Shown here one piece after another: positions 1,728-62,482 of a DNA stretch of 64,000 nt (within the stretch, counting starts at the first letter, position 1; each line of letters begins with the position of its first letter). A program made the translations under genes and the position numbers. The notes below the pieces were generated by a model. The model had not been told where the DNA came from, did no database searches, and saw only the letters and a list, made by a program, of their open reading frames with translations. This DNA comes from Eubacteriales bacterium (lineage in GTDB: Bacteria > Bacillota > Clostridia > Oscillospirales > CAG-272), in contig JAZSLM010000019.1 of NCBI GenBank assembly GCA_045535375.1, positions 10,871 through 74,870 of the forward strand, given 5' to 3'.

Positions 1728-1905
1728 TTTGCGAAGCAAACATATCGTATTGTTTGCCGAAGGCAAACGGTATATCGTGTTCACATATCGCATTCGCCCA
1801 AGCGAATATATCGTGTTTACCCACTCGGGTCTTCGACACGATATGCTACGCACGATATATCCTGCGGATACGATATGCTTCGCACGATATGTCGGCTTCG
1901 CCGAC
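1728..1905. repeat. Tandem mini-hairpin array with an ACGATAT(A/G)-type linker
   Basis: Units such as TTTGCGAAGCAAA, TTTGCCGAAGGCAAA, ATTCGCCCAAGCGAAT and GTCGGCTTCGCCGAC are separated by (A)CGATAT-like linkers. Confidence 0.7.
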
Positions 1906-3832: not shown

Positions 3833-3874
3833 ATATTACAATCACCTATCATTGGAAATTGAAAGGAGATAAAA

Positions 3875-5357: not shown

Positions 5358-5421
5358 TGAAAAGTGTAAAGTGGAAAGTGTAAAGTTGAGGTGAATTTCC
5401 TCGCTTTGCTCGGAAATTATC
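5357..5421 (+). repeat. Period-7 array (GTGAAAA/GTGTAAA/GTGGAAA) followed by the conserved AGGTGAATTTCC..GGAAATT hairpin module
   Basis: Starts at the mrnC stop. The same composite occurs at 27871-27937. Confidence 0.6.
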
Positions 5422-5437
5422 CTATTAAATAAAAATA

Positions 5438-5548
5438 CTTTTCGCCAAAGGCGAAAAGTTACCTTCATTCTGCGCAGCAGATTATCATTCGGCGCAAGCC
5501 GATTATCATTCCGCCGAAGGCGGATTATCATTCGCGCGAAGCGCGACA
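5438..5548. repeat. Tandem mini-hairpin array with an ATTATCATT linker
   Basis: CTTTTCGCCAAAGGCGAAAAG, then TGCGCAGCA, GGCGCAAGCC, CGCCGAAGGCG and GCGCGAAGCGC, each preceded by (G)ATTATCATT(C). Confidence 0.7.
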
Positions 5549-5576
5549 GAAATTTTACAGAAAAGGAACCAAAATA

Positions 5577-6080: not shown

Positions 6081-6089
6081 AATAAAGGG

Positions 6090-6403
<314 letters not shown>

Positions 6404-6407
<4 letters not shown>

Positions 6408-11380: not shown

Positions 11381-12784
11381 TTAACCTGCGGGGGGAGGCG
11401 GAGGAGGCGGTGCGCCGTAATCGGGCGGAGCCTCTTCGTCACCGCGCTTCTCCTCGATCGAGTAGAAGGTGGTGTAGCGTCCGATCCAGTTGAGATATAC
11501 CGTTCCCGTCGAGCCGTGACGGTTCTTTGCAACTATGATCTCGGCAACGGGTGCCTTGGTCACGTCGACTTTGCGCTTGTCCTCAACGTCCATATAGTAT
11601 TCGTCGCGGTAGATGAAGATAACGGTATCCGCGTCCTGCTCGATGGATCCCGATTCACGAAGGTCGGAAAGCATGGGTCGCTTCGAGGTTCTGCCCTCGG
11701 TTCCACGGGAGAGCTGTGAGCAGCAGATAACGGGCACGTGGAGCTCTTTTGCGAGAAGCTTGAGGTTACGCGAAATGTCCGCGACCTCCTGCACGCGGTT
11801 GTCCGTGTGCTTGTCGCCCTGCATAAGCTGGAGATAGTCGATCACGACAAGTCCGATCTTGCCCTCGCGGCGGAGCTTTGCCTTCATACCCGAAACCGTG
11901 ATGTTCGGGGTGTCGTCGATGAGGACGTTTACGCCCGCAAGGTCAACGACCGAGTTTGCAAGCTTCTGCCAGTCCTGCGTGGAAAGGCGGCCGGTTCGCA
12001 TATTGTAGCTGTCGACCATAGCGTAGGAGGAAAGCATACGCTGAACGAGCTGTTCGCTCGACATTTCAAGCGAGAAGATGGCAACCTTCTCCTTCGTTCT
12101 GCGCGCGTAATTGAGCGCGATGTTAAGACAGAACGACGTTTTACCCATACCGGGACGCGCACCGACGAGAACGAGGTCGCTCTGACCGATGCCGGCAAGG
12201 GTGGTGTCAAGGTCGCCGTAGCCCGTCTGGATGCCGTCAAAAGCATTGGGGTCGTCATAAAGGATGGAAAGATTGCGGAAGATGGTCTCGAGTACCGAGG
12301 TCATCGTGACGAATCCGCGGCTGTCGCGGCCCATTGCGATCTCGGACATCTGCGCGGCGGCATATTCAACGAGCTCGCCGACGTTTTCCTGCTCGGAATA
12401 CGCGCGTTCGGTGATATTTCCGCAGGTTTCGATCAAGCGGCGCATAAGGCTCTTTTCAAGCACGATGCGCGCGTAGTCCTTGATGTTGAGCGCGTTTGGT
12501 ACCGCATCCGCGAGGGTTCGGAGATAAACCTCCGCCTCGTCGCGGTTATATACCTTTTCCTTTTCAAGCACGTCAAGCAGAGTGACGTGGTCGATGTCGT
12601 GGTTGAGAAGCGAGAGCTGCTTCATCGCCGAGTAGATCTGGCGGTGCTCCGAAAGATGGAAATCCTCGGCGCGCACGGTGTCGGAGATCTGCGTCAGCGC
12701 GGGAGGGTCGATCAGTATCGAGCCGAGAAGCGCCTGCTCCGCGAGCATTGAAAAGGGGAGTTTTTTAATAATGTCCTGATTCAT
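11381..12784 (-). CDS. dnaB: Replicative DNA helicase (DnaB family)
   Basis: N-terminal LPFSMLAEQALLGSIL, Walker A GARPGMGKT and RecA-like C-terminal domain, plus a Pro-rich tail. Confidence 0.9.
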   Translation of the reverse strand: MNQDIIKKLPFSMLAEQALLGSILIDPPALTQISDTVRAEDFHLSEHRQIYSAMKQLSLLNHDIDHVTLLDVLEKEKVYNRDEAEVYLRTLADAVPNALNIKDYARIVLEKSLMRRLIETCGNITERAYSEQENVGELVEYAAAQMSEIAMGRDSRGFVTMTSVLETIFRNLSILYDDPNAFDGIQTGYGDLDTTLAGIGQSDLVLVGARPGMGKTSFCLNIALNYARRTKEKVAIFSLEMSSEQLVQRMLSSYAMVDSYNMRTGRLSTQDWQKLANSVVDLAGVNVLIDDTPNITVSGMKAKLRREGKIGLVVIDYLQLMQGDKHTDNRVQEVADISRNLKLLAKELHVPVICCSQLSRGTEGRTSKRPMLSDLRESGSIEQDADTVIFIYRDEYYMDVEDKRKVDVTKAPVAEIIVAKNRHGSTGTVYLNWIGRYTTFYSIEEKRGDEEAPPDYGAPPPPPPPAG

Positions 12785-23259: not shown

Positions 23260-23385
23260 ATGAATGATACTTCGCCCTGCGGGCGAAATGATAATCTGCC
23301 TGCGGCAGAATGATAATCGGCTTGCGCCGAATGATAATTTGCCTTCGGCAAAATGAAGGTGAATTTCCGCAAGCGGAAATTTTCG
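23260..23385. repeat. Tandem mini-hairpin array with an AATGATAAT linker, ending in the AAGGTGAATTTCC..GGAAATTTTCG module
   Basis: CTTCGCCCTGCGGGCGAA, CTGCCTGCGGCAG, CGGCTTGCGCCG and TTGCCTTCGGCAA are separated by ATGATAAT. Confidence 0.7.
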
Positions 23386-23745
23386 ATCAAATAAACGACA
23401 ACAATAGCGGGAAAGTTTTGGTCCACCTTTTTCAGAAAGGTATGCTTGCCTTCGGCAAGCTGCGACTCTGTCTTGTCGGCTCACGCCTCCATTTTCCTTC
23501 GGAAAACCGCCAGAGTCGCGCTCGTACTGAAAGCTTTTGAAGATTTTTAAGAAACTTTTCTCGAAAAGTTTCTTAAACAGAGCTCGAGACAGCGTCTCGA
23601 TTTAATGCGAAGGCTTCAGCCTTCGCTTCCGTGCTTCAAAACGGTGAAGCTCTGCTTCTCCGTTTTGGACAGAGTCAATACTTCCCGAATGTAGGGAAGT
23701 ATTGCGCTCTGTCACCCCCGCCGTCCGCAGACGGCGCAATTATAC
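23386..23745. repeat. Mosaic of shared intergenic modules
   Basis: Contains the reverse copy of GGCGGTTTTCCGAAGGAAAATGGAGGCG..GCCGACAAGACAGAGTCG, the AAGAAACTTTT..AAAAGTTTCTT palindrome, and the GACAGAGTCAATACTTCCC..GGGAAGTATTGCGCTCTGTC hairpin. Confidence 0.55.
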
Positions 23746-23762
23746 TTAATCCCATTGTAGTA

Positions 23763-23823: not shown

Positions 23824-24282
23824 ATGTCAAGTTATATTATGGATTTACGTAAGATCGTCGGTCACAGACCTTTGCTGCAGGTTGGCGCGAGTGTTATTGT
23901 TGAGGACAAAGAGGGCAGAATATTGCTCCAATTAAGAAGCGATAATCATTGCTGGGGATACGCGGGCGGTTCGGTTGAGCTTGACGAGGTCGTTGAAGAA
24001 GCGGCAAAAAGAGAATTGTTTGAGGAAACCGGACTTGTCGCAAAAGAATTGACTCTATTCGGCGTTTTCTCGGGCAAAGACACTCATTATGTTTATCCCA
24101 ATGGAGACGAGGTTTCAAACGTGGATATTGTATATATATGCAAAGATTACAGCGGCGATTTGCTTTGCCAAGAGGGCGAGGTTGATGCGCTGAAGTTTTT
24201 CCCGATAGATCAGATTCCGGATAATATTTCTAAACCTATTGAAAAACAGTTGAAACAGTATATTGCCTCGAAGCTTCATTAA
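23824..24282 (+). CDS. Nudix hydrolase
   Basis: Nudix box GGSVELDEVVEEAAKRELFEETG. Confidence 0.8.
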   Translation: MSSYIMDLRKIVGHRPLLQVGASVIVEDKEGRILLQLRSDNHCWGYAGGSVELDEVVEEAAKRELFEETGLVAKELTLFGVFSGKDTHYVYPNGDEVSNVDIVYICKDYSGDLLCQEGEVDALKFFPIDQIPDNISKPIEKQLKQYIASKLH

Positions 24283-24286
24283 CCGA

Positions 24287-24323
24287 ATTTCAGTTGTCGA
24301 TATTTTGTCGACAACTGAATTTT
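24287..24323 (+). terminator. Terminator hairpin, sequence-related to the one at 25919-25954
   Basis: ATTCAGTTGTCGA..TCGACAACTGAAT followed by TTT. Confidence 0.55.
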
Positions 24324-24369
24324 AGTTTTGTGACAATAAATATCAATATATAATAACAAAATTATACTT

Positions 24370-24509
24370 GTAGGGGACGGCGCCTCGACGTTACGAGCCC
24401 AATTAAGTTATTGCTGTGTTTTTATTCAAGAAAACATCATTGTAGTTTCTGCATTTAGTCAACGCAATAATATCGTGCTGTCGCGGGACGTCGAGGCGCC
24501 GTCCCCTCC
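24370..24509. repeat. ~140-bp element with ~20-bp terminal inverted repeats, copy A (copy B at 51771-51910)
   Basis: GTAGGGGACGGCGCCTCGACGT ... ACGTCGAGGCGCCGTCCCCT flanking an AT-rich core. Confidence 0.6.
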
Positions 24510-24572
24510 GGATTATAATTTCATTTGAGCATATTGATACAATGTGCGCGAGAATGTAGTTCTTCGGATGTT

Positions 24573-24675
24573 GCGACCTCTGCGGAGGTCGCGCGATATA
24601 TCGGCTTGCGCCGATGCGATATATAAATACGATATATCCGCTTTGCGAATGCGATATGTTCCGCAAGCGGAACGT
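24573..24675 (+). repeat. Mini-hairpin array with a GCGATATAT-type linker, homologous to 26425-26540
   Basis: GCGACCTCTGCGGAGGTCGC, CGGCTTGCGCCG and TTCCGCAAGCGGAA, then CGTGAAAATTTTT. Confidence 0.65.
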
Positions 24676-24747
24676 GAAAATTTTTGATAAAATTTTGTAA
24701 GACTTCCCCCATTTTCGACACTAATAGATGAAGGGAGGTGAGAGGTG

Positions 24748-25239
24748 ATGAAGTTCGAGGAGATATACACCGAATATTTTTCCGACGTGTACCGATATAT
24801 GCTCCGGCTTTCGGGCGACGAGCACGTGGCGGAGGAGATAACGAGCGAGGCGTTTTTTGCGGCGCTTTCCTCGCTCGACCGGTTCCGCGGCGAGAGCGAG
24901 GTCCGCGTCTGGCTCTGCGGGATCGCGAAAAACTGCTACTATCAGTACCTCAAAAAGAAAAAGCCGATCGTCAGCATCGACGATGACGGTATCGAAGAAA
25001 TGCCGGATGACTCAGCCACGCCAGCCGAGCACGCGGCGGATAAGTCGCACGCGGAGCAGATAAGGCGGATATTGCACTCGATCCCCGACCCCTACCGTGA
25101 GGTCTTCATGTGGCGCGTCTTTGCCGAGCTTGACTTCCGCGAGATCGGTAAGCTCTTCGGAAAGACCGACAACTGGGCGTGTGTCACCTATCACCGTGCA
25201 AAAAATATGATCAAGGAACGAATGGAGGAAAAGAAATGA
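24748..25239 (+). CDS. ECF-type sigma-70 family RNA polymerase sigma factor
   Basis: Region 2 (YFSDVYRYMLRLSGDEHVAEEITSEAF) and region 4 (PDPYREVFMWRVFAELDFREIGKLFGKTDNWACVTYHRAK). GTG at 24745 is an alternative start. Confidence 0.8.
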   Translation: MKFEEIYTEYFSDVYRYMLRLSGDEHVAEEITSEAFFAALSSLDRFRGESEVRVWLCGIAKNCYYQYLKKKKPIVSIDDDGIEEMPDDSATPAEHAADKSHAEQIRRILHSIPDPYREVFMWRVFAELDFREIGKLFGKTDNWACVTYHRAKNMIKERMEEKK

Positions 25240-25910
25240 AAAACGAATGCAACATAGTCCGCGACCTTTTGCCGCTCTATATCGAGAATATGGTTAGTGC
25301 GGAAACAAAGGAGTTTGTCGAGGCGCACCTTTCAAAATGCCCGGAGTGTAATGAGCTGTATCTTTCTATGACAGAAAAAAGCGCGGAAGAGATCGCCGAT
25401 GACGAGGCGCAGAAAAAGATCCTTCCCTTGCGTTTAGTCAAGCGTAAGTTGCTGTGCAAAAAGATCGTAGCGTCCGCTATTTCGGTAGTGGTTTTGCTTG
25501 CGATAGTTATCGTTGCGGGAGTAAAAGCCTACGATTTTGTCGATAGGCAGAATAAGGTCGCTCATATAGATTACGGCACGTCAGAGCTATATTCGAAGGT
25601 AGAAATAATGAATGTGCTGAATGACAAAGTTCTTCCCCAAATATACAGATTTGGTTTTGGATATGATATTATTTCGGTCAGATATGCAGGCGATGAGGAG
25701 AGCATAGATTTCAGCCGGAATAATTCCGGAAATTATGACGCCTATATGGTTTTCGATGTTGAAATAAAAACTCCCGCGTGGGCAAAACCTATCTGGGGGC
25801 TCAAGCCGAATACCTATTACGACAATCTCAAGTGGCATGTGGCAATAGATTATGATTCCGCCCTTTGGGTGCAGACTTGGAATACACCTTATTCAAAACC
25901 CGCTGAATGA
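25236..25910 (+). CDS. Anti-sigma factor (zf-HC2) with one TM helix and an extracytoplasmic domain
   Basis: H-x3-C-x2-C (HLSKCPEC) motif, TM segment IVASAISVVVLLAIVIVAGV, and a start overlapping the sigma gene stop (ATGA). Confidence 0.7.
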   Translation: MKNECNIVRDLLPLYIENMVSAETKEFVEAHLSKCPECNELYLSMTEKSAEEIADDEAQKKILPLRLVKRKLLCKKIVASAISVVVLLAIVIVAGVKAYDFVDRQNKVAHIDYGTSELYSKVEIMNVLNDKVLPQIYRFGFGYDIISVRYAGDEESIDFSRNNSGNYDAYMVFDVEIKTPAWAKPIWGLKPNTYYDNLKWHVAIDYDSALWVQTWNTPYSKPAE

Positions 25911-25918
25911 AAATTAAA

Positions 25919-25954
25919 ATCAGTTGTCGACACTTTGTCGGCAACTGATTTTTA
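25919..25954 (+). terminator. Intrinsic terminator after the anti-sigma gene
   Basis: ATCAGTTGTCGA..TCGGCAACTGAT followed by TTTTT. Confidence 0.55.
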
Positions 25955-25980
25955 TATAGCGTATTATATCAATGTTTGCA

Positions 25981-26292
25981 ATGTTCGCACAAACTTATCA
26001 GCCTTCCCCGGTGGGGGAAGGTGGCAGCCGAAGGCTGACGAATGAGGCGCCTAATAAGATATTGTTTTTCGCGTTAGCGAAAATCTTCCAAAACATAGTT
26101 AACTAAATATTTTGTTCTGAACTCAGATTGCAAAAGAATACAATGCAAAGGTTATTTGCTAAATTTGATCCAGATATGGCTTTTTTATTGGTCAAACGGG
26201 AAGATTTTCTCGCTACGCTCGAAAAACAGTATCTTATAAAAACGCCTCATTCACCACTTCGTGGTCCCCCTTCCCCCACCGGGGAAGGCATA
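25981..26292 (+). mobile_element. MITE-like element, copy B
   Basis: Starts ATGTTCGCACAAA..TCAGCCTTCCCCGGTGGGGGAAGG and ends CCTTCCCCCACCGGGGAAGG. The interior matches the reverse complement of 17124-17449. Confidence 0.65.
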
Positions 26293-26424
26293 GTTCGCTT
26301 GCGGCGAACTGCCGTGTCTGCCTCGTCGGCTGAACGCCTCCGTTTTCCTTTGGAAAACCGTCAGACACGCGTTGTGGGCGTGAATTCTTTTGTTCAGCGT
26401 TCTGGATTTTGATATTTTGATGTT

Positions 26425-26540
26425 GCGCCGTCATGCGCGGCGCGCGATATGCTCGCTTCGCGAGCGCGATATATCGGCTGTGCCGATACGATATACCTTC
26501 GGCACGATATGTTCCGCTGTGCGGAACGTGAAATTTTTTA
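26425..26540 (+). repeat. Mini-hairpin array with a GCGATAT-type linker
   Basis: GCGCCGTCATGCGCGGCGC, GCTCGCTTCGCGAGC, CGGCTGTGCCG and TTCCGCTGTGCGGAA, then CGTGAAATTTTTT. Confidence 0.65.
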
Positions 26541-26570: not shown

Positions 26571-26599
26571 TTGACATATTCATTAAAATGTAGTATAAT
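26571..26599 (+). promoter_or_regulatory. Consensus sigma-A promoter for argG
   Basis: TTGACA-17 nt-TATAAT. Confidence 0.55.
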
Positions 26600-26649: not shown

Positions 26650-27888
26650 ATGAAAGTTCTCGACAAATCCAAGATCAAGAAAGTCGCCCTTGCTTATTCG
26701 GGCGGTCTCGATACATCCATCATCATTCCGTGGCTCAAGGAAAACTACAACAACTGCGAAGTAATCGCGATCTCGGGCAACGTCGGTCAGGCTGACGAGC
26801 TTGAGGGTCTTGAGGAAAAGGCGCTGAAGACCGGCGCGTCCAAGCTCTACGTCCTCGACCTTTGCGACGATTACGTTGACAATTACATCATCCCCACCAT
26901 GAAGGCGGGCGCGATCTATGAGGAATACCTCCTCGGCACCTCGCACGCTCGTCCCTGCATCGCGAAGGCTCTCGTTGAGGTAGCTCTCAAGGAAGGCTGC
27001 GACGCTATCTGCCACGGCTGTACCGGTAAGGGCAACGACCAGGTCCGTTTCGAGCTGACCATCAAGGCGTTCGCTCCCGATATGCCCATCATCGCTCCCT
27101 GGAGAGAGTGGGATATCAAGTCGCGTGAGGAAGAGATCGACTACGCGGAGGCGCACAACGTACCGCTCAAGATCAACCGCGAGACCAACTACTCGAAGGA
27201 TAAGAACCTCTGGCACCTCTCGCACGAGGGTCTTGACCTTGAGGACACCGGCAACGAGCCGCAGTACGAGAAGCCCGGCTTCCTCGAGATGGGCGTTTCT
27301 CCCATTATGGCTCCCGATAAGCCTACCTACATCGAGCTCGATTTCGTACAGGGTGCTCCCGTAGCACTCAACGGCGAAAAGATGAGCGCGAAGGATATCA
27401 TCCTCGCCCTCAATAAGATCGGCGGCGAGAACGGCATCGGTCTGCTTGACATCGTTGAAAACCGTCTTGTTGGTATGAAGTGCCGTGGCGTATACGAAAC
27501 TCCCGGCGGAGCGATCCTCTATAAGGCGCACAGCGTGCTCGAGTCGATCTGCCTTGACAAGTACACACTCCACGAAAAGCAGAAGCTTGCCGTCACATTC
27601 GGTGAGCTCGTATATAACGGCCAGTGGTTCACACCTCTCCGCGAGGCGCTTTCCGCGTTCGTTGACAAGACCCAGGAGACGGTTACCGGTAAGGTAAGAC
27701 TCAAGCTCTACAAGGGCAATATGATCAACGCGGGCGTATGGAGCGACTACTCTCTCTACAGCGAGGAGATCGCAACCTTCGGCGAATCCGACTACGACCA
27801 GTCGCAGGCGGCAGGATTCATCAATCTCTTTGGACTTCCCATTACCGTTAAGGCGATGGTCGATAAAAAAGTGAAGAGTGAAAAGTGA
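26650..27888 (+). CDS. argG: Argininosuccinate synthase
   Basis: [12 protein letters not shown]-binding motif. Start at ATG 26650 with AAGGAG upstream. Confidence 0.95.
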
Positions 27889-28400
27889 AAAGTGAAAAGG
27901 TGAGGTGAATTTCCTCGCTTTGCTCGGAAATTTTCGATTTTAATTAAAACCAAAGACAACAGCAGCGGGAAAGTTTTTGAAGATTCTTAAGTGACTTTTT
28001 TCAAAAAGTCACTTAAGTCGCCCTCCGCAGAGGGCGAAACTTCTCCGCGCTTCGAGCTGACTGCGCCCCGCAGGCAGCTCGGACAGAGTCAATAGCCCCC
28101 TTGCGGGGCTATTGTGCTCTGTCAATCTTTATAAAAATAAAATGAATGAGTCATACCTTCCGCGAGGGAAGGTATGACTCATTCCGAACAGTCGGCGGGG
28201 TGCCGCCTGTTCGAAGCACAAGGTGTTTCGCGCGGCTCTGGCGGTTTTCCGAAGGAAAATGGAGGCGGGAGCCGACAAGACAGAGTCGACTTTTGCCGTA
28301 GGCAAATATGTCTGCGGAGGGCGACTTAAGGCTCTGCCTTAAGAAACCGCAAACTTTTGAAAAAGTTTGATCAAAACTTTCAAGCTTTGAGAGGATTTAA
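27871..28400. repeat. ~530-bp mosaic of repeat modules filling the argG-argH spacer
   Basis: GTGAAAA heptamers, the AGGTGAATTTCC hairpin, CTTAAG palindromes, the GACAGAGTC..GCTCTGTC hairpin, a 105-bp module (28226-28330), and a 34-nt CGCAAACTTTTGAAAAAGTTTGATCAAAACTTTC module. Confidence 0.65.
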
Positions 28401-28402
28401 TT

Positions 28403-29782
28403 ATGGCTAAACTTTGGGAAGGCAGGACGGCGGCACAGACCGATAAGATCGCAGATGATTTCAATTCGTCGATCGCCGTTGACTGCCGTATGTATAAAGA
28501 AGATATCACGGGCAGCATGGCGCACGCCGCTATGCTCGGGGAGCAGGGAATTATCGCGCCCGATGAGGCGGAAGTGCTTATCGACGGTCTTGCGGGCATT
28601 CTGGCAGATCTGAATGAGGGCAAGCTCGAGATCGATCCCACCGCCGAGGATATCCATATGTTCGTCGAAACCGTACTGACGGCGCGCCTCGGCGATGTGG
28701 GCAAAAAACTTCATACCGCGCGCAGCCGTAACGATCAGGTCGCGCTCGATTTCCGTATGTATCTCCGAAATGAAACCGAGGTCGTTGTGGAAAAGATCAA
28801 GGCGATGGCAGCCACTCTTGCAGATAAGGCGGAGGAGTACGCCACCGCGATCATGCCCGGCTACACGCACCTGCAGAGAGCGCAGCCGATCAGCTTCGGT
28901 CATCACCTTTTAGCTTACGCGATGATGCTTCTGCGCGATGCGGAGCGATTCACGGATACACTCAAGCGTATCGATATCTGCCCCATCGGCTCCTGCGCGC
29001 TTGCGGGAACGACTTATGATACCGACAGATATTTCGAGGCGGAAAAGCCCGGGTTCTCGAAGATCGCGCTCAACTCGATCGACGGCGTATCCGACCGCGA
29101 TTTCGCTCTCGAATTCCTTGCGAATTGCTCGATCCTCATGACTCACCTCTCGCGATATGCCGAGGAAGTGATCCTCTGGTCGAGCTGGGAGTTCGGATTC
29201 GTCGAGCTTTCGGATGCCTACACCACCGGCTCGTCGATCATGCCGCAGAAGAAGAATCCCGATATGGCGGAGCTGATCCGCGGCAAGACGGGACGCGTCA
29301 ACGGTGATCTCATCACGCTTTTGACCGTAATGAAGGGTCTGCCGCTGGCGTATAACAAGGATATGCAAGAGGATAAGGAAACCGTATTCGACGCGCTCGA
29401 TACCGTCAAGATCTGCCTCGACGTTGCCATACCGATGACGGCAACCATGACGGCGCGTACCGAGAAGATGCGCAAAGCCGCAGAGGGCGGATTCATCAAC
29501 GCCACTGACCTCGCCGATTACCTCGTCGGCAAGGGAATGCCCTTCCGCGCGGCATATAAGATCTCGGGACAAGTCGTCGCCGAGTGCATCAAGACGGGCA
29601 AAGTGCTTGAAAACCTGCCGATCGAGGTTTATAAGTCCTATTCCGAGATAATCTCCGATGACGTCTACGACGCCGTAAACCTCGATAATTGCCTCTGCCG
29701 CAGAACAAGCGAGGGAGGACCGGCGGCGGAGTCTGTGAAGAAGCAGATTGAGTACGTTAGAAGTCGCGCTTCGCGCAAATGA
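28403..29782 (+). CDS. argH: Argininosuccinate lyase
   Basis: Fumarate-lyase signature GSSIMPQKKNPD. Confidence 0.95.
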   Translation: MAKLWEGRTAAQTDKIADDFNSSIAVDCRMYKEDITGSMAHAAMLGEQGIIAPDEAEVLIDGLAGILADLNEGKLEIDPTAEDIHMFVETVLTARLGDVGKKLHTARSRNDQVALDFRMYLRNETEVVVEKIKAMAATLADKAEEYATAIMPGYTHLQRAQPISFGHHLLAYAMMLLRDAERFTDTLKRIDICPIGSCALAGTTYDTDRYFEAEKPGFSKIALNSIDGVSDRDFALEFLANCSILMTHLSRYAEEVILWSSWEFGFVELSDAYTTGSSIMPQKKNPDMAELIRGKTGRVNGDLITLLTVMKGLPLAYNKDMQEDKETVFDALDTVKICLDVAIPMTATMTARTEKMRKAAEGGFINATDLADYLVGKGMPFRAAYKISGQVVAECIKTGKVLENLPIEVYKSYSEIISDDVYDAVNLDNCLCRRTSEGGPAAESVKKQIEYVRSRASRK

Positions 29783-30360
29783 TAGTCTGCCTTCGGCAGA
29801 ATGAAGGTAAATTTCCGAGCCGGAAGGCTCGGAAATTTTCGATTATAATTGAAACTAAAGACAACAGCAGCGAGAAGTTTTTTGAAGATTCTTAAGAAAC
29901 TTTTTCGAAAAAAAGTTTCTTAAGTCGCCGTCCGCAGACATATTTGCCTACGGCAAAAGTCGACTCTGTCTTGTCGGCTCCCGCCTCCATTTTCCTTCGG
30001 AAAACCTCCAGAGCCGCGCGAAATACCCCTGCGCTTCAAACAGACGACGCCCCGTCGGCTGTTTGGAAGGAGTAAAACCTCCCCTTGGGGAGGTTTTCGC
30101 TCCTTCACCCTGCGTGACCTTCGGTCACGCAATGCCAAATAAAGATTTAACAATAGGCACAGATCCCTCGCCTCGGCAAACCGTGTACCCTCCATGGCCC
30201 TCCCGCAAGCGGCAATGCTGTCAACTTAAGAAAGTTATTAAAAAGCTATGTTCGTACTCGTTTCGAGGGGATTTCCTTAAGTGGACAGCATTGCTGCCAG
30301 CGGGAGGGCTTTGTTTTATTATAAAACCTCTTATTTGGCACTCTGAACATAGAAATTAAC
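29766..30360. repeat. Mosaic repeat region downstream of argH
   Basis: Starts inside the argH 3' end. Contains the direct repeat of 27920-28031 and the inverted 105-bp module (29919-30023). Confidence 0.6.
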
Positions 30361-30409
30361 AGTTGAATATTCCTCAACAAACAGTTGTGCACTTTCAACC
30401 GCACTGCTA

Positions 30410-30438
30410 TTGCATTTTGGATAAATATATGATATAAT
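30410..30438 (+). promoter_or_regulatory. Promoter candidate
   Basis: TTGCAT-17 nt-TATAAT with an extended TG. Confidence 0.45.
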
Positions 30439-30477
30439 GTAATCGTGCCGCAAAACAGGTTTTAAGGAGGTGTTCGC

Positions 30478-31119
30478 GTGATACATATCGGCTCATTTGA
30501 GATCAAAACAGAAATTTTCGTTTTGATCGTGTCGCTTTTGCTGTTGTCGATTCAGCTTCTCTTGTGCTTCAAGGCGAAAAGGCTTTGGATCCGTTTGATT
30601 CCGTTCGGTTTGTTTGCGGGCACGGCGGCTATATTGGTTTTTGCTTCTTTGATTGCTGACTATTATGCGCTTGTGTTGTTTGTGTATGCGATCTATTCCG
30701 GATTTCTGGCTTTTGTCTGTGCTTGCGGTTGGGCGATTTGGTGGATAGTTGAATCGCTCTGTGCGTATATTAGAAAATCGAGCAAAAAACAAATCATCAC
30801 TCTGTTTTCGGTGATCGCATCGGCGGTGCTGATCGTTGTGACTTCCGTGAGTCTTTTTAACTATACTTATCCCACCCATTACCCCTATAAAGACCGCGAG
30901 ATCATCGGAAGCACGCCCGAGGAGATCGAAGAGAAGTACGGTGAGTTTTCGGAATTTTACCGTGACGAGGAAAATGCACCGAGCTTGGCAAAATATATGA
31001 TACGCGATAATACTCCCGAATGGATCATGAGCTATGACGATTCTCTTTGGTATCATATATATTTTAAGGACGGTGTTGCCGTGAGAGTCAGACTGCAAGA
31101 AGGCTACCCGGGAGGGTGA
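30478..31119 (+). CDS. Hypothetical membrane protein (about 4 TM helices plus a soluble C-terminal domain)
   Basis: GTG start 8 nt after AGGAGG; hydrophobic N-terminal half. Confidence 0.55.
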   Translation: MIHIGSFEIKTEIFVLIVSLLLLSIQLLLCFKAKRLWIRLIPFGLFAGTAAILVFASLIADYYALVLFVYAIYSGFLAFVCACGWAIWWIVESLCAYIRKSSKKQIITLFSVIASAVLIVVTSVSLFNYTYPTHYPYKDREIIGSTPEEIEEKYGEFSEFYRDEENAPSLAKYMIRDNTPEWIMSYDDSLWYHIYFKDGVAVRVRLQEGYPGG

Positions 31120-31283
31120 CGGAGTTGAGCCTTCCTCGAAAAACCTGTTCGGATTATTTTTGTCACCCTTGATCGTATTTGGACTTTTTGAAATGTATTT
31201 GAATTTCAAAAAGAAAATTGAGGACCTTTCGTATCGGGTTGAACAGCTTGAGGAGAGTATGAAGGATAAAGAATAATTAGAGT

Positions 31284-31325
31284 GAATGATTAAAACCTCC
31301 CGCAAGCGGGAGGTTTTAATCATTC
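31284..31325. repeat. Perfect 20-bp-stem hairpin containing the CCTCCCGCAAGCGGGAGG module
   Basis: GAATGATTAAAACCTCCCGC..GCGGGAGGTTTTAATCATTC. The core recurs at 51652-51676 and 30190-30320. Confidence 0.5.
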
Positions 31326-31590
31326 CAAGCGGTCGGCAGGGGCGCCGCCCGCTTGAAGCACACGGGGAATTTCGCCGTCTGCGGACGGCGACTTAAGAAA
31401 CTTTTTTGAAAAAAAGTTTCTTAAGAATTTTCCAAAAACTTTCCGCTGCTGTTGACTTTAATTTAATTGAAAATTTCCGCGTGCGGAAATTTACCTTCAT
31501 TCGGCGCAGCCGACTATCATTCTGCGAAGCAGATTATCATTCTCGCGCAAGCGAGATTATCATTCCGCCGAAGGCGGACAGTACGCATAT
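31326..31590. repeat. Mosaic repeat region including a mini-hairpin array (31471-31582, ATTATCATT linker)
   Basis: Reverse-orientation copies of the CTTAAGAAACTTTT palindrome and CAACAGCAGCGGAAAG modules, then GGCGCAGCC, TGCGAAGCA, CGCGCAAGCG and CGCCGAAGGCG hairpins. Confidence 0.6.
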
Positions 31591-36771: not shown

Positions 36772-37137
36772 GGAAAGTTTTGATCAAACTTTTTCAAAAG
36801 TTTGCGAATTCTTAAGGCGGGGCCTTAAGTCGCCCTCCGCAGAGGGCGAAACTCTCTTCTGCGCTCCGAGCAGACTGCGCCCCGCAGGCTGTTCGGAAGG
36901 AGTCAAGCCTTTCCCTTCAAGGGAAGGCTTGCGCTCCTTCAATTTTTCTAAATTCAAATACCAAAAGGGTGACAGAGCGCGATACTTCCCTACAATCGGG
37001 AAGTATCGACTCTGTCCGAAACTCAGAAGCAGAGCTTCAGAGTTTCGAAGCACGATGAAGCGAGCTTACGCTCGCATTGAAATGAGGCTCTGCCTCATAC
37101 TCCGCAAACTTTTGAAAAAGTTTGATCAAAACTTTCC
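36772..37137. mobile_element. 366-bp element with perfect 35-bp terminal inverted repeats inside the argB-argD spacer
   Basis: 36772-36806 GGAAAGTTTTGATCAAACTTTTTCAAAAGTTTGCG is the exact reverse complement of 37103-37137. The interior carries the same modules as 27990-28125. Confidence 0.6.
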
Positions 37138-40302: not shown

Positions 40303-40604
40303 AAGTGGCTAGTGTCTAGTGACTAGTGGAAGGTAAATTTTCGCGGAGCGAAAATTTCAGATTAATAATTTTATGATGTGCCGACAAAACTTCGAGTAGC
40401 GCAAAGCTAAAGCAAGTAAAAAAGATTCTCGGATATTTCGAAGCAAAATCTTCTCAATATCCGAGATTTTTATTTAGGCATTAAATTATCCAACTAAATA
40501 GAGGATTATCAACACCAAATTAAATTATCATACAAGCTTGATTTTCGAGCAAAGCGAGAAAATCTTCTTTCACTAGCCACTAGTCACTAGCCGCTAGCCA
40601 CTAT
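40303..40604. repeat. ~300-bp element bounded by inverted CTAGTG-type heptamer arrays (sibling of 6090-6407)
   Basis: Left arm GTGGCTAGTGTCTAGTGACTAGTGG plus the AAGGTAAATTTTCG hairpin. Right side is ATTTTCGAGCAAAGCGAGAAAAT plus CACTAGCCACTAGTCACTAGCCGCTAGCCACTA. Confidence 0.65.
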
Positions 40605-49843: not shown

Positions 49844-49876
49844 CTGACCACTGATCACTAATCACTGACCGCTAAT
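49844..49876. repeat. Period-7 array CTGACCA CTGATCA CTAATCA CTGACCG CTAAT
   Basis: Overlaps the serpin stop codon and its last three codons. Confidence 0.55.
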
Positions 49877-51598: not shown

Positions 51599-51770
51599 GT
51601 TTTTTCTCCTTTTTGCTTGGATATTTTTTATGATGGAGCGCTGTATGCCCTCCCAACCCTCCCGCAAGCGGGAGGGCTTTATTTTTGATAGCAGACTTTA
51701 TTGTTCAGAGTTCTGAACATTGAGATTTGATGTGAAATAATATTGATGTGTAATAATTAAATTATAATCC

Positions 51771-51910
51771 GTAGGGACCGACGTCCTCGGCGGTCCGAGT
51801 CCAATAAAAATATTGCTTTGTATAAAATCAATATAATTACATTACACTTTCTGAATTTCACCAAATATATAATTTAATGCCCACGGATCGCCGAGGACGT
51901 CGGTCCCTAC
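51771..51910. repeat. 140-bp element with perfect 22-bp terminal inverted repeats, copy B
   Basis: GTAGGGACCGACGTCCTCGGCG ... CGCCGAGGACGTCGGTCCCTAC. Confidence 0.65.
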
Positions 51911-51975
51911 AAACTCGTACTAAATTCAGCAAAACTATTCAATTTATGCTCGTTCTGAACATTATCAATAAATTG

Positions 51976-52091
51976 CTTTTCGCATGCGAAAAGCTACCTT
52001 AACATTCCGCTTTTGCGGAATATATCACTCGCGTTATGCGCGAATATCACTTTTGCGAAGCAAAAATATCACATTTCGCCGCAAGGCGAAA
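51976..52091. repeat. Mini-hairpin array with a (T)ATATCAC linker
   Basis: CTTTTCGCATGCGAAAAG, TTCCGCTTTTGCGGAA, TCGCGTTATGCGCGA, TTTTGCGAAGCAAAA and TTTCGCCGCAAGGCGAAA. Confidence 0.65.
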
Positions 52092-52110
52092 TATTTATCT
52101 GCGCTTATAT

Positions 52111-55389: not shown

Positions 55390-55503
55390 AATAATTATTC
55401 ATTATTCATCATTCATCAGCGAAGCGGCTTCATTATTCGTTATAAATAAAATCCGCGCGTGCCAAATGAATAATGAATGATGAATAATGAAAAATGAATA
55501 ATT
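55390..55503. repeat. Inverted pair of period-7 AT-rich arrays (TTATTCA/TCATTCA versus TGAATAA/TGAATGA)
   Basis: 55390-55418 is complementary to 55465-55503. The right arm ends 3 nt before the GDPD RBS. Confidence 0.6.
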
Positions 55504-56268: not shown

Positions 56269-56285
56269 TAGTTTGTCACGCTTCG

Positions 56286-56486
56286 CGTGAATGATGATCT
56301 CGCTTCGCGAGAATGATTATCGGCTTCGCCGAATGATAATTTGCCTTCGGCAAAATGAAGGATAATTTTCGCCTTTGGCGAAAATTTCCGAATTTTATAA
56401 AACACTTTTCGCCGCACGGCGAATCTTAACTCGGCGCAAGCCGATCTTAACTTGCCGCAGGCAACATTAACTCGCGCGCAGCGCGA
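56286..56486. repeat. Two adjacent mini-hairpin arrays (AATGATNAT linker, then TCTTAAC linker)
   Basis: Nine hairpins; see the first finding. Confidence 0.7.
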
Positions 56487-56516
56487 TAGAAAACTCAAAG
56501 AAAAGGAACCCAAACA

Positions 56517-59298: not shown

Positions 59299-59455
59299 CA
59301 ATTGTAAAACTGCGTTTTACAATTGATACGCGCGCTTATTGCCGCCTGCCAAAATTAAGAATTTTGGCGGCTCCCCTCGGCGCGCGGACTCGCTTTGCTC
59401 GTCAGGTAGGTGTTTTTTCGTCGGCAAAGCCGCCCAAAAAACAGATTTTATTATA
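59299..59455 (+). repeat. ~157-nt structured intergenic repeat, copy B
   Basis: Aligns with 3674-3832, with compensatory changes in the first hairpin (CAATTG..CAATTG versus CACTTG..CAAGTG). Confidence 0.7.
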
Positions 59456-59483
59456 ATAAAAAGAATAAAGGAGAATATTGAAA

Positions 59484-60919: not shown

Positions 60920-62482
60920 GTGCAAAAGAAATTGGAATTGATTCACATTATCATCTGTGTGGCTGTCGGTATCGTGGCTCTCGCTCTCGGAATCGTCATC
61001 GGTATTCTCATCCGCCGTTCCATCGCTGAAAAGAAACTCGGCGTTGCAGAGGAACGCGCAAAGAAGATCGAGTCGGATGCCAAGGTCCAGGCCGAAGCCG
61101 AAGCAAACAAGATGATTCTTGCCGCTCAGAAAGAGATCAATCAGATACGTTCCGAAAACGAAAAGGAAATCAAGGTACGCCGCAGCGAGATCTCCCGTTC
61201 CGAGCGCAGATTGACACAGAAGGAAGAATCCCTCGACAAGAAGACCGAGCAGCTCGAAAAGAAGAACGAGCAGCTTGATAAACGCATCAAGGACAACGAG
61301 ATCGTTCGCGAACAGCTCAATGCGTCGCTCGAGCTCCAGACAAAGGCTCTTGAGCGTATTTCGGGTCTGACCGCCGAGGAGGCAAAGAGAGAGCTTATCG
61401 AAAAGCTCGAAAGCGTTGCAAAATTTGAGTTTGCACAGAGAATGGACGAGCTCGAGGAGCAGTTCAAGGACGAGGCAGACACCAAGGCGCGCAATTACAT
61501 TTCGCTGGCTATTCAAAGATACGCCGCGGATAACGTTTCCGAAGCAACCATCACCAGCGTTTCCCTCCCCGGAGAGGAGATGAAGGGACGAATCATCGGA
61601 CGCGAAGGAAGAAACATTCTTATGCTCGAAAAGCTCACGGGAGTCGATCTCATCATCGACGATACCCCCGAGGCTATCACCCTTTCGGGCTTCGACCCCG
61701 TTCGACGCGAGATCGCGCGACTTGCGCTTGAAAAGCTCATCGCGGACGGCCGCATCCATCCTACCCGCATTGAGGAGATGGTCGAAAAGGCAAAGAGAGA
61801 GGTCGAGGCAGGAGTCAAGCAGGCGGGCGAGCGCGCAACCTTCGAGGTTGGCGTTCACGGACTCAATCCCGAGCTTGTCAAGCTTCTCGGCAGACTCCGC
61901 TACCGTACTTCCTACGGTCAGAACGTGCTCAAGCACTCTGTTGAGGTCGCATTCCTCGCAGGAATCATGGCAGAAGAGCTTGGAGTTGACGCGGCAACCG
62001 CACGTCGCGCAGGTCTTCTCCACGATATCGGAAAAGCATTCCCCCACGACGTCGAGGGTACTCACGTACAGATCGGCGTAAACGCAGCCAAGAAGTATAA
62101 GGAGAGCCGCGAGGTCATCCACGCTATCGAGGCGCATCATAACGACGTTGAACCCAAGACCATCATCGCAGTTCTCGTTCAGGCGGCAGACGCGATCTCC
62201 GCCGCAAGACCCGGCGCACGCCGCGAGGATCTCGAGAACTACACCAAGCGTCTTGAAAAGCTTGAGGAGATCGCGAAGGAATTTAATGGAGTCGAAAAGG
62301 CGTATGCGATCCAGGCAGGCCGCGAGCTCCGCGTAATGGTCAAGCCCGAGGAGGTCGATGACGTTGCAATGAAGGTCATCGCCCGCGATATGGCGCAGAA
62401 GATCAAGGAAGACGTCAAGTACCCCGGACAGATCAAGGTCCACATCATCCGCGAATCCCGCGCGGTAGATTACGCAAAGTAA
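60920..62482 (+). CDS. rny: Ribonuclease Y
   Basis: N-terminal TM helix, coiled coil, KH domain ([11 protein letters not shown]) and HD domain (LLHDIGKA). The exact start is uncertain: TTG at 60932 or 60938 is more plausible than GTG 60920, which abuts the RBS. Confidence 0.9.

Follow-up and report, generated by a model that had tools for sequence, protein, structure and literature searches.

Tandem mini-hairpin arrays at gene boundaries of an uncultured gut Clostridia genome are members of the Gut-1 motif family

The spacer between the GDPD and DJ-1 genes consists of two oppositely oriented modules, which we call arrays J and K, and lies within a 64-kb stretch of DNA that was analysed as a whole (hereafter the window). 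Array J (56276..56357, + strand) makes up the 3' trailer of the GDPD gene, with four units in the Gut-1 orientation, whose hairpins (TCACGC, TCTCGC, TCGGC and TTTGCC) all carry TTC loops and are joined by the linker ATGATRA. It begins after the GDPD stop codon and runs through to a terminator-like hairpin (56276-56386). This terminal module (56358..56388, +) comprises AAGG-AT, the hairpin AATTTTCGCC-ttt-GGCGAAAATT and a T-containing tail; we refer to it as the T hairpin, and the same module also ends arrays at 23356, 29804, 31470(-), 40330, 49701, 51976(-) and 6339(-). The convergent modules J and K are separated by the AT-rich centre CCGAATTTTATAAAACACT (56389..56407, assigned to neither strand), where promoter prediction found no sigma-70-like promoter ahead of leader K. 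Array K (56408..56486, - strand) forms the 5' leader of the DJ-1 gene and adjoins its ribosome-binding site, with four hairpins (TTCGCC, TCGGC, TTGCC and TCGCGC) separated by TCTTAAC or CATTAAC linkers as read on the + strand. As its Gut-1-type polarity lies on the - strand, GNA/GNRA loops fall on the mRNA-sense strand. The leader ends in a conserved ribosome-binding region before the DJ-1 ATG (TAGAAAACTCAAAGAAAAGGAACCCAAACA; 56487..56516, +), and this end is common to the ppiB leader at 5548-5576.

By hand curation we counted 11 arrays in nine spacers of the window, since the spacers at 1728-1905 and 56276-56486 each contain two arrays of opposite polarity. Array A (1728..1815, -) is an inverted member of the RCGATAT linker family that adjoins the stop codon of a HAD gene, and it stands back to back with array B (1837..1905, +), which has ACGATAT linkers, GC-NNN-GC hairpins and a unit of about 14-16 nt. 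Array C (5437..5548, -) is the ppiB 5' leader and contains a hairpin designated hp0 plus four units with TTATCAT linkers on the + strand. Arrays D (23262..23385, +) and H (31471..31582, -) are trailers of infB and argF, respectively, each located past a canonical terminator and each composed of four units and a T hairpin. Arrays E (24573..24675, +) and F (26425..26540, +) belong to the RCGATAT family; E has the terminator-like end GTTCCG-caag-CGGAAC-GTGAAAATTTTT and F ends in GTTCCGC-tgt-GCGGAAC-GTGAAATTTTTT, with a predicted argG promoter (26571-26599) just 3' of it. Array G (29766..29850, +) is the argH trailer, with two units and a T hairpin, and its first unit lies over the argH stop codon. 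Array I (51975..52101, -), with GTGATAT linkers, four units and a terminal hairpin, is found 3' of the terminator of the SBP gene.

The first-pass annotation had described tandem mini-hairpins in these nine spacers, and each spacer shows the arrays described, with the linkers that it gave. Its estimate of roughly 50 hairpins is close to the 45 perfect hairpins of at least 4 bp obtained by hand curation, which we used in place of a relaxed detector that, when one mismatch was allowed, took linkers into stems and missed true arrays. In a strict census (stems perfect over at least 5 bp, 3-6-nt loops, three or more hairpins set 5-11 nt apart) we detected eight arrays with 36 hairpins, compared with 0.3 ± 0.6 in 50 dinucleotide shuffles. 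The suggested unit of about 20 nt corresponds to the 20-22 nt that we measured (TRF periods 20-22), except at 1837-1905, where it is 14-16 nt because the hairpin is reduced to GC-NNN-GC. The loops, described as 3-5 nt, are mostly of 3-4 nt (TTC/GAA, TGC/GCA, TTGC/GCAA). Pairing is indeed retained despite sequence change: 92% of cells are paired and in 8 of 21 pairs both sides have changed, a level that none of 500 shuffles reached. The stems are not arbitrary, however: the outer TC..GA and inner GC..GC are nearly fixed, and variation is confined to the one or two middle pairs. The arrays are in general non-coding, but not wholly so, given the overlap of array G with the argH stop codon. Orthologous arrays in independent assemblies (L084-L087, L330-L332 and L378) demonstrate that the arrays are real and not artefacts of assembly.

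Three kinds of unit make up the arrays: a bare linker of 7-9 nt, a linker with a 7-nt GC-NNN-GC, and a linker with a 13-17-nt hairpin, which produce periods of 7, about 14 and 21-22 nt, respectively. The module has a set order, in which N units are followed by (G)AAGGTR, a terminal hairpin with A/T flanks and a T-rich tail. The stems follow the template TC-N-GC-GNA-GC-N'-GA, the core of which is a GCGNAGC mini-hairpin. Stems start with TC, TT, GT or AT, GTAG occurs in no unit, and the same stem was never seen in adjacent units. A few cases of wobble were noted on the Gut-1 strand (C.A or A.C in 3-4 stems only, no G.T), in numbers too low to tell the strands apart. Several readings of the linkers were considered and set aside. 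A small ORF from the ATG of AATGAAGG showed no conservation across arrays and was rejected, and a role as back-up stop codons in three frames was judged incidental because RCGATAT linkers and several heptamers have no stop. HutP-like NAG-N4 repeats suit some heptamers (CTAGTGG) but not the linkers of hairpin arrays.

All units of one array share polarity, and inverted pairing occurs only between whole arrays. Each of the 26 GCGNAGC/CCGNAGG cores in the arrays lies opposite the strand annotated in Rfam, and GNA/GNNA loops favour that opposite strand by 29 to 1, compared with 20 to 22 for hairpins outside arrays. The strand opposite the Gut-1 annotation also has G-free linkers and better local folding, and the linkers, which are conserved above the stems, are predicted to be unpaired on it (0.74). 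Together, loop type, linker composition and predicted folding point to the strand opposite the Rfam annotation. Minimum free energies computed with RNA and DNA parameters did not separate the strands, and the ViennaRNA DNA set apparently contains no GNA bonus. The orientation of arrays tracks gene direction and not strand (6 versus 5 arrays, in a window with mostly positive GC skew), and a single genome contains four or more unrelated linker families.

This layout, which the first-pass annotation did not recognise, is that of the Gut-1 motif (Rfam RF01706). The identification of the window arrays as members of this family, and of the GDPD-DJ-1 spacer as holding two of them, is well supported. 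Gut-1 was described from gut metagenomes, with its function given as unknown (Weinberg et al. 2010, Genome Biol 11:R31), as three tandem hairpins with the linker GUGAAAU/GUGAUAU, and was classed as an sRNA rather than a cis-regulatory element (Rfam; Weinberg et al. 2010); in the literature that we searched it is mentioned in the original 2010 paper alone. When scored against the Gut-1 covariance model (gathering score 50), array I reached 53.2 bits, and sequences from the relatives L331 (56.9 bits) and L332 (51.6 bits) were also above threshold. Arrays H (47 bits), C (37 bits) and D (35.1 bits) were below it, as was array J (24.1 bits at 56289-56364, +), and array K gave no match to the model. 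The window arrays have at least three tandem hairpins with a constant 7-nt linker of the purine-UGA type, and the GUGAAAU of the model is matched in the alignment by AUGAUAA, GUGAUAU and RCGAUAU. The alignment of Weinberg et al. has the same order as the window (stop codon, terminator, GUGAUAU array, inverted AUAUCAC array), and arrays D, H, I and the J/K pair share the seed-type context of BAAZ01000095 and BAAZ01025322. It is likewise well supported that the Gut-1 family is a dispersed, modular and polar intergenic repeat hosted by an uncultured, Oscillospirales-like lineage of gut Clostridia.

Comparison with relatives showed that some arrays are conserved and others turn over. Leader K, which has orthologues in L084, L330 and L331, is 93% identical to that of L084, whereas the four-fold sites of DJ-1 reach 69%; array I and its counterpart in L332 share 98% identity, compared with 67% at codon position 3, and array I with its unstructured tail is 96-98% conserved, compared with 63-70% at synonymous sites. 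Array J is conserved at 68%, about the neutral rate. The length polymorphism among relatives that had been suggested as a check was observed: array G has two units in the window and four in its L378 orthologue, and the L332 orthologue of array J has one unit fewer. The SBP trailer array is present or absent depending on the relative, and we saw no target-site duplications at presence/absence junctions. Bare heptamers occupy the place of hairpin arrays at the same site in relatives, and such heptamer arrays are abundant, with up to 18 copies. The canonical GDPD terminator is present in L082 and L330 and decayed in the carriers of array J (the window and L332).

Stems also recur between loci: TCGGC, TCTGC, TCCGCC and TCGCGC are found in arrays C and H, in array G of L378 and in the L331 leader, and the DJ-1 leader of L331 is closer to the ppiB leader of the window than to its DJ-1 leader. 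L379 has a dialect of its own at two loci, with CA..TG stems and ATGATATA linkers. In an argH-based contig search, the relatives listed were all at most 69% identical, and among the 80 loci listed comparable arrays were found in L010 only, an Acutalibacteraceae MAG whose arrays use another linker. In metagenomes, the matches listed for the pattern AATGATAAT-N12-16 x3, which had no GC anchors, were AT-rich coding sequences and simple repeats, with no GC-stem array among them. Searches of viral contigs with the AATGATAAT pattern and the terminal module TGAAGGTRAATTTCCG recovered no genuine arrays, and so gave no sign of a phage origin.

The reading that we favour, with a probability of about 45%, is that the arrays are a dispersed boundary element of the REP/BOX type, which would be co-transcribed with neighbouring genes and act through its hairpins and terminator. 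In support of this reading, 11 of the 14 terminal modules lie 3' of a gene and in the direction of that gene, and in about seven cases no other terminator-like structure comes between the stop codon and the terminal hairpin. On the Gut-1 strand, a consensus terminator scan flagged the terminal hairpins of E and F, as well as the hp0 or terminal hairpins of C, I and K, as terminator-like; the T hairpins of D, G, H and J, in which the T-run lies partly within the stem, were unflagged. Opposite-strand units of the arrays score terminator-like as well. Further points in favour are the decay of the canonical GDPD terminator where array J is present, the constraint on leader K and array I, the covariation of the stems, and the dispersal and turnover of arrays among loci and relatives.

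We infer, at about 40%, that the modules are co-transcribed with the adjacent gene and serve as its boundary elements. In 3' trailers such as array J, where the array sits between stop codon and terminal hairpin, the latter would be an intrinsic and probably bidirectional terminator, and the string of GC hairpins would provide a structured 3' end that slows exonucleases. The trailer array may in addition block transcription coming from the opposite side, because each unit reads on the opposite strand as a GC hairpin with UUAUCAUU behind it. In the 5' leaders of DJ-1 (array K) and ppiB, where the module is reversed, it would place stable GNA/GNRA-loop hairpins and G-free unpaired linkers at the start of the mRNA, followed by the conserved ribosome-binding region. 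Arrays would lengthen or shorten by whole units through slippage, and may be copied or exchanged among loci by recombination or some mobilising activity.

Several observations weigh against the boundary reading. Trailers D, H and I lie past strong canonical terminators, so that they would be transcribed by read-through only. Bare heptamers in the same slot can form no hairpin barrier, and the hairpins may thus be inessential. In trailers the marks of an optimised hairpin are antisense to the upstream gene, which suits a leader role and not a trailer role. Folding energies are alike on both strands, and leader K is not preceded by a predicted promoter. Finally, lineage-specific unit dialects such as that of L379 suggest a partner that reads sequence over a generic structural role.

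In a different reading the active form is single-stranded DNA: an array of d(GCGNAGC)-type hairpins on one DNA strand would be read by an ssDNA-specific enzyme (a HUH/RAYT-like transposase, a primase or a recombinase) that copies modules, so that the system would be REP-like with a different repeat architecture and effects on adjacent genes would be by-products. d(GCGNAGC)/d(GCGNNAGC) are extraordinarily stable DNA mini-hairpins (Hirao, Yoshizawa and co-workers; review PMC13037366), and among 64 triloops tested only GNA was very stable as DNA (Tm 70-76 C), with RNA forms much weaker and TTC loops nothing special (PMC13037366). The occurrence of every core on one defined strand, and the loop bias that is seen in arrays and not outside them, favour this reading, and it also accommodates the same ordered stems at several loci, presence/absence polymorphism, insertion over a stop codon and a unit dialect peculiar to each lineage. 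However, neither the 64-kb window nor the gene lists of about 0.3 Mb of related loci contained a Y1/HUH transposase, an integrase or another candidate, and the RAYT/IS200-like gene that the first-pass annotation had proposed to look for, or any other partner protein for the arrays, was likewise seen in neither. The junctions without target-site duplications, the orientation by gene direction rather than strand and the equal strands under ViennaRNA DNA parameters also argue against it. We regard an ssDNA element as unlikely, and the stronger proposal of a new class of REP-like mobile element, in which mini-hairpins joined by a lineage-specific linker are read as ssDNA and whole modules are copied to gene boundaries, as more doubtful still.

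The original Rfam/Weinberg reading, a stand-alone sRNA or protein sponge in which hairpin-spaced linkers bind several copies of an RNA-binding protein (cf. RsmY/Z-CsrA), appears improbable to a similar degree. It agrees with the classification of Gut-1 as an sRNA, the high conservation of array I and its tail, and linkers that are more conserved than stems and predicted unpaired, and the replacement of hairpin arrays by bare linker repeats is expected if the linker is the active part. However, most arrays start directly at a stop codon or terminator or only a few bases from one, which leaves no room for a promoter of their own, and none was predicted upstream of arrays; the unrelated linker families within one genome, and gain, loss and resizing among close relatives, would be unusual for a trans-acting regulator.

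We consider it very unlikely that the arrays have no function and arose by neutral slippage on heptamer tracts, with quasi-palindrome template switching keeping the arms complementary. Unit lengths in multiples of 7, abundant heptamer arrays, differences by whole-unit insertion or deletion, the near-neutral rate of array J and the frequent absence of arrays at orthologous sites would all follow from such a process, but arrays K and I are conserved far above synonymous sites, and loop polarity is strict, the core sequence fixed, the terminal module conserved and the orientation biased relative to genes. Fresh slippage products would, moreover, place identical stems in adjacent units, which we never saw.

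Least probable of all is a double-stranded DNA signal, in which AT-rich linkers every 21-22 bp (two helical turns) would be overlapping promoters, phased bends or protein sites: adjacent TTATCAT-family linkers do form TTATCA-16/17-TATCAT, 5300-6450 holds six promoter-like matches where 1.2 are expected (with similar ones at 23288-23338 and 31534-31563), ppiB has no other predicted promoter and TCGCGC..GCGCGA, the last hairpin ahead of the ribosome-binding site, is invariant, but the matches are just 9/12 and easily produced by AT-rich linkers, the TCTTAAC (including array K), ATATCAC and RCGATAT families are not promoter-like, so that the promoter-array idea suits the TTATCAT family only, 7- and 14-nt periods are off this geometry, and perfect palindromes with GNA loops are left unexplained.

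Gut-1 has been in Rfam since 2010 without a host or function, and the window ties the motif to a definable lineage. New relative to the published motif are its host, an uncultured Clostridia lineage, and the organisation of arrays as polar modules with a conserved terminal hairpin; the bare heptamer repeats that stand in for arrays at orthologous sites; the differences in unit number, linker type and presence among close relatives, with some arrays conserved far above synonymous sites; and the stem template with a GCGNAGC core that is always opposite the Rfam-annotated strand. Gut-1 is thus one dialect of a larger modular repeat system, found in about two thirds of the longer spacers of the window. 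The polar module with its terminal hairpin, whole-unit length change, heptamer interchange and strand-specific mini-hairpin core are all testable features. Should the arrays fix the boundaries of transcripts or the stability of mRNA, gut Firmicutes would possess a naturally occurring insulator or stabiliser that can be tuned; should they function as ssDNA, the REP/RAYT concept would gain a new architecture, and Rfam would annotate Gut-1 on the wrong strand. The strand annotation merits re-examination under either an RNA or an ssDNA reading.

Among known systems, CRISPR arrays alternate identical 23-50-nt repeats with unique spacers of about the same length and have cas genes nearby, whereas here 7-9 nt are conserved, the variable portion forms a 13-17-nt palindrome and cas genes are absent from the window; the arrays had rightly been called not CRISPR-like. 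Intrinsic terminators resemble the terminal hairpin, with its A-tract, GC core and T-tract, and the opposite-strand unit, a GC hairpin plus TTATCATT that scores terminator-like; the arrays depart from them in having short stems (4-7 bp) and U-tracts with interruptions, and in often lying behind a strong canonical terminator. BOX elements of Streptococcus pneumoniae (boxA-boxBn-boxC) similarly have variable tandem units between fixed end modules; stable stem-loops in the transcript are predicted for them, and no enzyme that mobilises them is known. However, boxB is 45 nt with near-identical copies, has no sequence relation to the arrays and belongs to another host group, and BOX has neither a linker-plus-mini-hairpin unit nor a GNA-loop polarity.

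The comparison with REP/BIME-type dispersed intergenic repeats, drawn in the first-pass annotation, is apt. Like the arrays, the REPs of Enterobacteria and Pseudomonas are dispersed extragenic palindromes at gene 3' ends, form arrays with linkers and are oriented by genes; they are thought to stabilise mRNA or terminate transcription, and to be mobilised as ssDNA hairpins. However, REP units are 20-40 nt, conserved in sequence and marked by a 5' GTAG, whereas the hairpins here are 13-17 nt and have no GTAG; BIME units alternate in orientation, whereas those of the window are direct with a conserved linker; and REPs have a RAYT partner, whereas none was seen in the window or among the listed genes of related loci.

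In most units the core is exactly one of the DNA mini-hairpins, GCGAAGC, GCGCAGC, GCGCAAGC or CCGAAGG. The known natural cases of these mini-hairpins are single, at phage and plasmid replication origins, ssi signals and phage N4 promoters, and chromosomal tandem arrays at gene boundaries are not among them. The closest counterpart is Gut-1 itself, which shares with the arrays at least three tandem GC hairpins with the constant 7-nt linker GUGAAAU/GUGAUAU, a position past a stop codon and terminator, often with an inverted array behind it, and an origin in gut-associated uncultured bacteria. Its published description names neither a host nor a function and mentions no terminal module, heptamer equivalents or 5' leader context. 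Arrays J and K have other linkers (on the Gut-1-type strand, AUGAUAA and GUUAAGA), and against its model J scores 24 bits and K nothing. In the arrays described here the features of an optimised hairpin lie opposite the strand on which Gut-1 is annotated.

The first-pass annotation described tandem mini-hairpin arrays at 56286-56486. This observation is correct: the layout can be read from the sequence at 56276-56486, and the same architecture was seen in all eight further regions it listed. Using strict criteria (stem of 5 bp or more without mismatch, loop of 3-6 nt, at least three hairpins at 5-11 nt spacing), a mechanical census of the window found 36 hairpins in 8 arrays, compared with 0.3 ± 0.6 arrays in 50 dinucleotide-preserving shuffles. 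Hand curation resolved 9 spacers into 11 arrays (A-K) with 45 perfect hairpins (stem at least 4 bp), close to the roughly 50 first estimated, and opposite-polarity pairs occur in two spacers (1728-1905 and 56276-56486). The proposed ~20-nt unit agrees with Tandem Repeats Finder periods of 20-22 nt at five regions; the period at 1837-1891 is ~16 nt. Since independent assemblies from other samples hold orthologous arrays, the arrays are not assembly artefacts.

The layout, which the annotation did not recognise, is the Gut-1 motif, as judged by matches to RF01706 and by the anatomy of the Weinberg alignment. The RF01706 model, in which GUGAAAU joins three tandem hairpins, matched array I in the trailer of a solute-binding protein (SBP) gene (52017-52101, minus strand) at 53.2 bits (gathering score 50), and two related loci (L331 and L332) likewise scored above threshold. 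Sub-threshold matches lie at 31489-31565 (-, 47 bits), 5457-5533 (-, 37 bits), 23262-23342 (+, 35 bits) and, between the GDPD and DJ-1 genes, 56289-56364 (+, 24 bits).

The window is ordinary bacterial chromosome, encoding HAD phosphatase, GDSL lipases, Mini-RNase III, ppiB, infB, argG, argH, argF, serpin, SBP, MatE, GDPD, DJ-1, Rce1-like, YceG and RNase Y, with no tRNA genes in its 64 kb. Among the matches listed, the nearest proteins, at 85-93% identity, belong to metagenomes and to MAGs labelled 'Clostridia bacterium', and those at ~70% identity are labelled Oscillospiraceae, Ruminococcaceae or Acutalibacteraceae; because of these labels, the host is taken to be an uncultured Clostridia lineage, probably Oscillospirales-like. 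Mini-RNase III (4974-5357) lies immediately 5' of the ppiB spacer and its two modules, and RNase Y (60920-62482) is also present; both enzymes process structured RNA, and the adjacency is probably coincidence. A perfect consensus sigma-70 promoter of argG (TTGACA-17-TATAAT, 26571-26599) directly follows the array F terminal hairpin.

The arrays are dispersed, polar, modular repeats at gene boundaries. On the strand on which Gut-1 is annotated (the Rfam strand), each module reads N units, (G)AAGGTR, a terminal hairpin (AATTTYCS-loop-SGRAAATT or a variant) and a T-rich tail; the RCGATAT-linker family ends differently, in GTTCCGC-loop-GCGGAAC-GTGAAATTTTTT, which was flagged by a terminator scan. 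Units consist of the linker alone (7 nt), the linker plus a GC-NNN-GC mini-hairpin (~14 nt; 1837-1891) or the linker plus a 13-17-nt hairpin (21-22 nt). As bare heptamer arrays (AGTGAAA, CTAGTGG, AAAAGTG and others) share the terminal module of hairpin arrays, the linker alone can count as a unit. Tandem 7-nt repeats (AGTGWAA, CTAGTGG, AAAAGTG, AATGAAT and others) are frequent in window spacers (5356-5386, 6089-6109, 6369-6408, 27867-27899, 40304-40328, 40570-40603, 49844-49876, 55394-55416 and 55465-55502), most with this terminal module. Five copies of AATGAAT lie closely 5' of the GDPD start, with sequence and copy number kept in five relatives, and another related locus (L381) carries 18 copies of ACTCWGC.

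By our own count, ~15 of the 23 window spacers longer than 60 nt bear modules. Terminal modules lie 3' of a gene and co-oriented with it in 11 of 14 cases; in ~7, no other terminator-like structure comes between the stop codon and the terminal hairpin, and a strong canonical terminator precedes the module in three (infB, argF and SBP). Reverse-oriented arrays abut the conserved ribosome-binding region (AGAAAAGGAACC...ATG) in the ppiB (5437-5548) and DJ-1 (56408-56486) leaders. In the GDPD-DJ-1 spacer, the GDPD stop codon is thus followed by array J (56276-56386; four units) and the terminal hairpin that closes it. An AT-rich centre of 19 nt separates this hairpin from array K, whose four hairpins have the opposite polarity, and the ribosome-binding site and DJ-1 come last. 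The argH stop codon falls within the first linker of array G (29766-29782; aaaTGAtag), whose first hairpin encodes the last codons; ArgH has 459 aa in the window and in L378 and 456-457 aa where relatives have a different trailer, and the repeat has apparently remodelled its C-terminus.

Arrays were oriented by linker and terminal module before loops were typed. On the strand opposite to Rfam's, 29 of 45 hairpins have a GNA/GNNA loop closed by C-G and one the complementary type, the other loops being mainly those of terminal hairpins; among 249 hairpins outside arrays these types numbered 20 and 22. The stem template on this strand is TC-N(1-2)-GC-loop-GC-N'(1-2)-GA, with variation confined to the middle 1-2 pairs and a fixed core of GCGAAGC, GCGCAGC, GCGCAAGC or CCGAAGG. 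All 26 occurrences of GCGNAGC/CCGNAGG within arrays (~1.7% of the window) are on this strand, and its linkers contain G at only 4 of 218 nt. These cores are the sequences of 'extraordinarily stable' DNA mini-hairpins: among 64 GCNNNGC triloops tested, GNA alone folded stably (Tm 70-76 °C), the RNA counterparts were far weaker (r(GCGAAAGC), Tm 39 °C) and TTC-loop hairpins were nothing special (PMC13037366). A single-stranded DNA element acting with a hypothetical partner enzyme is a rival reading that we consider unlikely. The window's genes include no transposase, integrase or cas gene.

RNA folding also separates the strands. The intended local hairpins had a mean pair probability of 0.80 on the opposite strand versus 0.64 on the Rfam strand (Wilcoxon p = 0.03), and linkers were unpaired at 0.74 versus 0.51 (p = 0.005); minimum free energies alone gave no separation. 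By direct reading, the mismatches in the conserved terminal hairpin ATTTCCTCGCTTTGCTCGGAAAT are a tandem U.C/C.U on the Rfam strand and a tandem G.A on the other. Gut-1 was classed as an sRNA without proposed function (Weinberg et al. 2010, Genome Biol 11:R31), the only paper mentioning it in the literature searched; that the arrays are a stand-alone sRNA or a protein sponge seems doubtful to us.

Syntenic loci of relatives revealed fast turnover of arrays and strong constraint on some single copies. The GDPD-DJ-1 spacer is shortest in L082, at 109 nt (terminator and three heptamers, without a hairpin array), and exceeds 1 kb in L081, L084-87 and L332, where it has gained one or two genes. The DJ-1 leader holds four hairpins with TCTTAAC linkers in the window and L084, with CATTAAC linkers in L330 and with TCATCAT linkers in L331 (closest to the window's ppiB leader), bare TGCATTT x4 in L088, bare TCTGCAC x4 in L081 and nothing in L082. 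Across five leader arrays, the annotated pattern of pairing kept while sequence varies held up, with 92% of cells paired (21-48% with the partner slid) and both-sided change in 8 of 21 pairs, matched by 0 of 500 shuffles. The window leader matches that of L084 at 104 of 112 positions (93%; DJ-1 four-fold sites, 69%), and the inserted G/C pair that distinguishes them leaves the stem intact. Judging from these alignments, the leader array is under constraint where retained.

Array I occurs in the window, L084 and L332, is absent from L082, L088 and L330, and is replaced by a different RCGATAT pair in L081; window and L332 copies are 98% identical (124/127; unstructured tail, 96%; flanking-gene codon position 3, 63-70%). 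Array J is 68% identical, about the neutral rate; a clean deletion of one unit (21 nt) separates it from the L332 copy. Array G has two units in the window and four in L378, with the terminal hairpin unchanged. A neutral slippage product would lose and gain units in this way, yet with single copies so constrained we consider it improbable. The stems TCGGC, TCTGC, TCCGCC and TCGCGC are reused across loci and genomes, which indicates dispersed copies of a repeat family rather than independently evolved hairpins. L379 and L380 use a different dialect, with CA..TG stems and the ATGATATA linker, at two loci separated by 10 kb, and L382 (78% argH identity) has neither hairpin nor heptamer arrays. 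Of the more distant Clostridia loci, 80 of which were listed, one has comparable arrays: L010, an Acutalibacteraceae MAG (39% GC), with an inverted pair beside a tRNA gene (11792-12041) that has a different linker (TATGYAAT / ATTACATA), GNA loops and C..G-ended stems. The beads-on-a-string layout therefore extends beyond the Gut-1 linker family.

Array-bearing spacers are hot spots of gene gain and loss. Low-GC3 genes (NUDIX, an ECF sigma/anti-sigma pair, a 276-aa ORF without family match) lie between housekeeping genes at 23824-26412 and 29850-31470, and in relatives at L378 1590-9530, L081 8146-10000 and L084 4840-7013; relatives' inserts at these sites differ: the argH-argF interval of L378 contains five genes, and one or two extra lie between GDPD and DJ-1. 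A MITE-like element (~150 nt, 22-bp terminal inverted repeats, GTAGGGGACGGCGCCTCGACGT) occurs at 24360-24530 and 51770-51911, L084 6660-6810 and L331 ~9690-9860, ~65 nt from a hairpin array in three copies; its long hairpin accounts for sub-threshold Rfam 'mir-2513' and 'MIR166' matches. A second hairpin-rich family, without an Rfam match, has a ~75-nt core, TTTTCC-GNA-GGAAAA...AGCCGACAAGACAGAGTCGA...TTTGCC-GNA-GGCAAA (6130-6200 and 28240-28310, plus; 23440-23510 and 29940-30010, minus), with a larger repeat at 23400-23760, 27940-28400, 29850-30060, 31310-31470, 36780-36935 and 37060-37124. Hairpins such as CTTAAG..ACTTTT/AAAAGT..CTTAAG and CAAACTTTtgaaAAAGTTTG flank the core; the family comes after several array trailers and recurs in L081 and L084. 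Another intergenic repeat (3674-3870 and 59299-59470), CAMTTGTAAAAC-tgc-GTTTTACAAKTG then ...GGCTCCCCTCGGCGCGCG... and a T-rich hairpin, sits 5' of two genes, for a GDSL lipase and an HD-domain protein.

Of the functions weighed, we infer that a co-transcribed boundary element is the likeliest (probability about 0.4). The terminal hairpin would act as a terminator, the hairpin string as a structured RNA end withstanding exonucleases, and units on the other strand as weak terminators in series against incoming transcription; a 5' leader module would place stable mRNA hairpins before the ribosome-binding site. Precisely the two genomes with array J (window and L332) show a decayed canonical GDPD terminator, which fits a module that may have taken over termination. 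Against a boundary element, trailers carry the optimised strand antisense to the gene before them, bare heptamers can stand in for hairpins and three trailers sit past strong terminators. A double-stranded DNA promoter or binding array is the least probable reading.

The annotation likened the arrays to REP/BIME elements. This comparison is useful as an analogy of how they work; as membership it fails on the form of the palindrome and on alternating orientation, and no RAYT gene was seen among the genes of the window or those listed for related loci. The order in the Weinberg Gut-1 alignment is that of the window: stop codon, terminator, GUGAUAU-linker array and inverted AUAUCAC-linker array. 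To that description our analysis adds a host lineage, a grammar of modules, the equivalence with heptamer arrays, and data on turnover and constraint. It also adds the strand-specific mini-hairpin core, and this core puts the annotated strand of Gut-1 in question.
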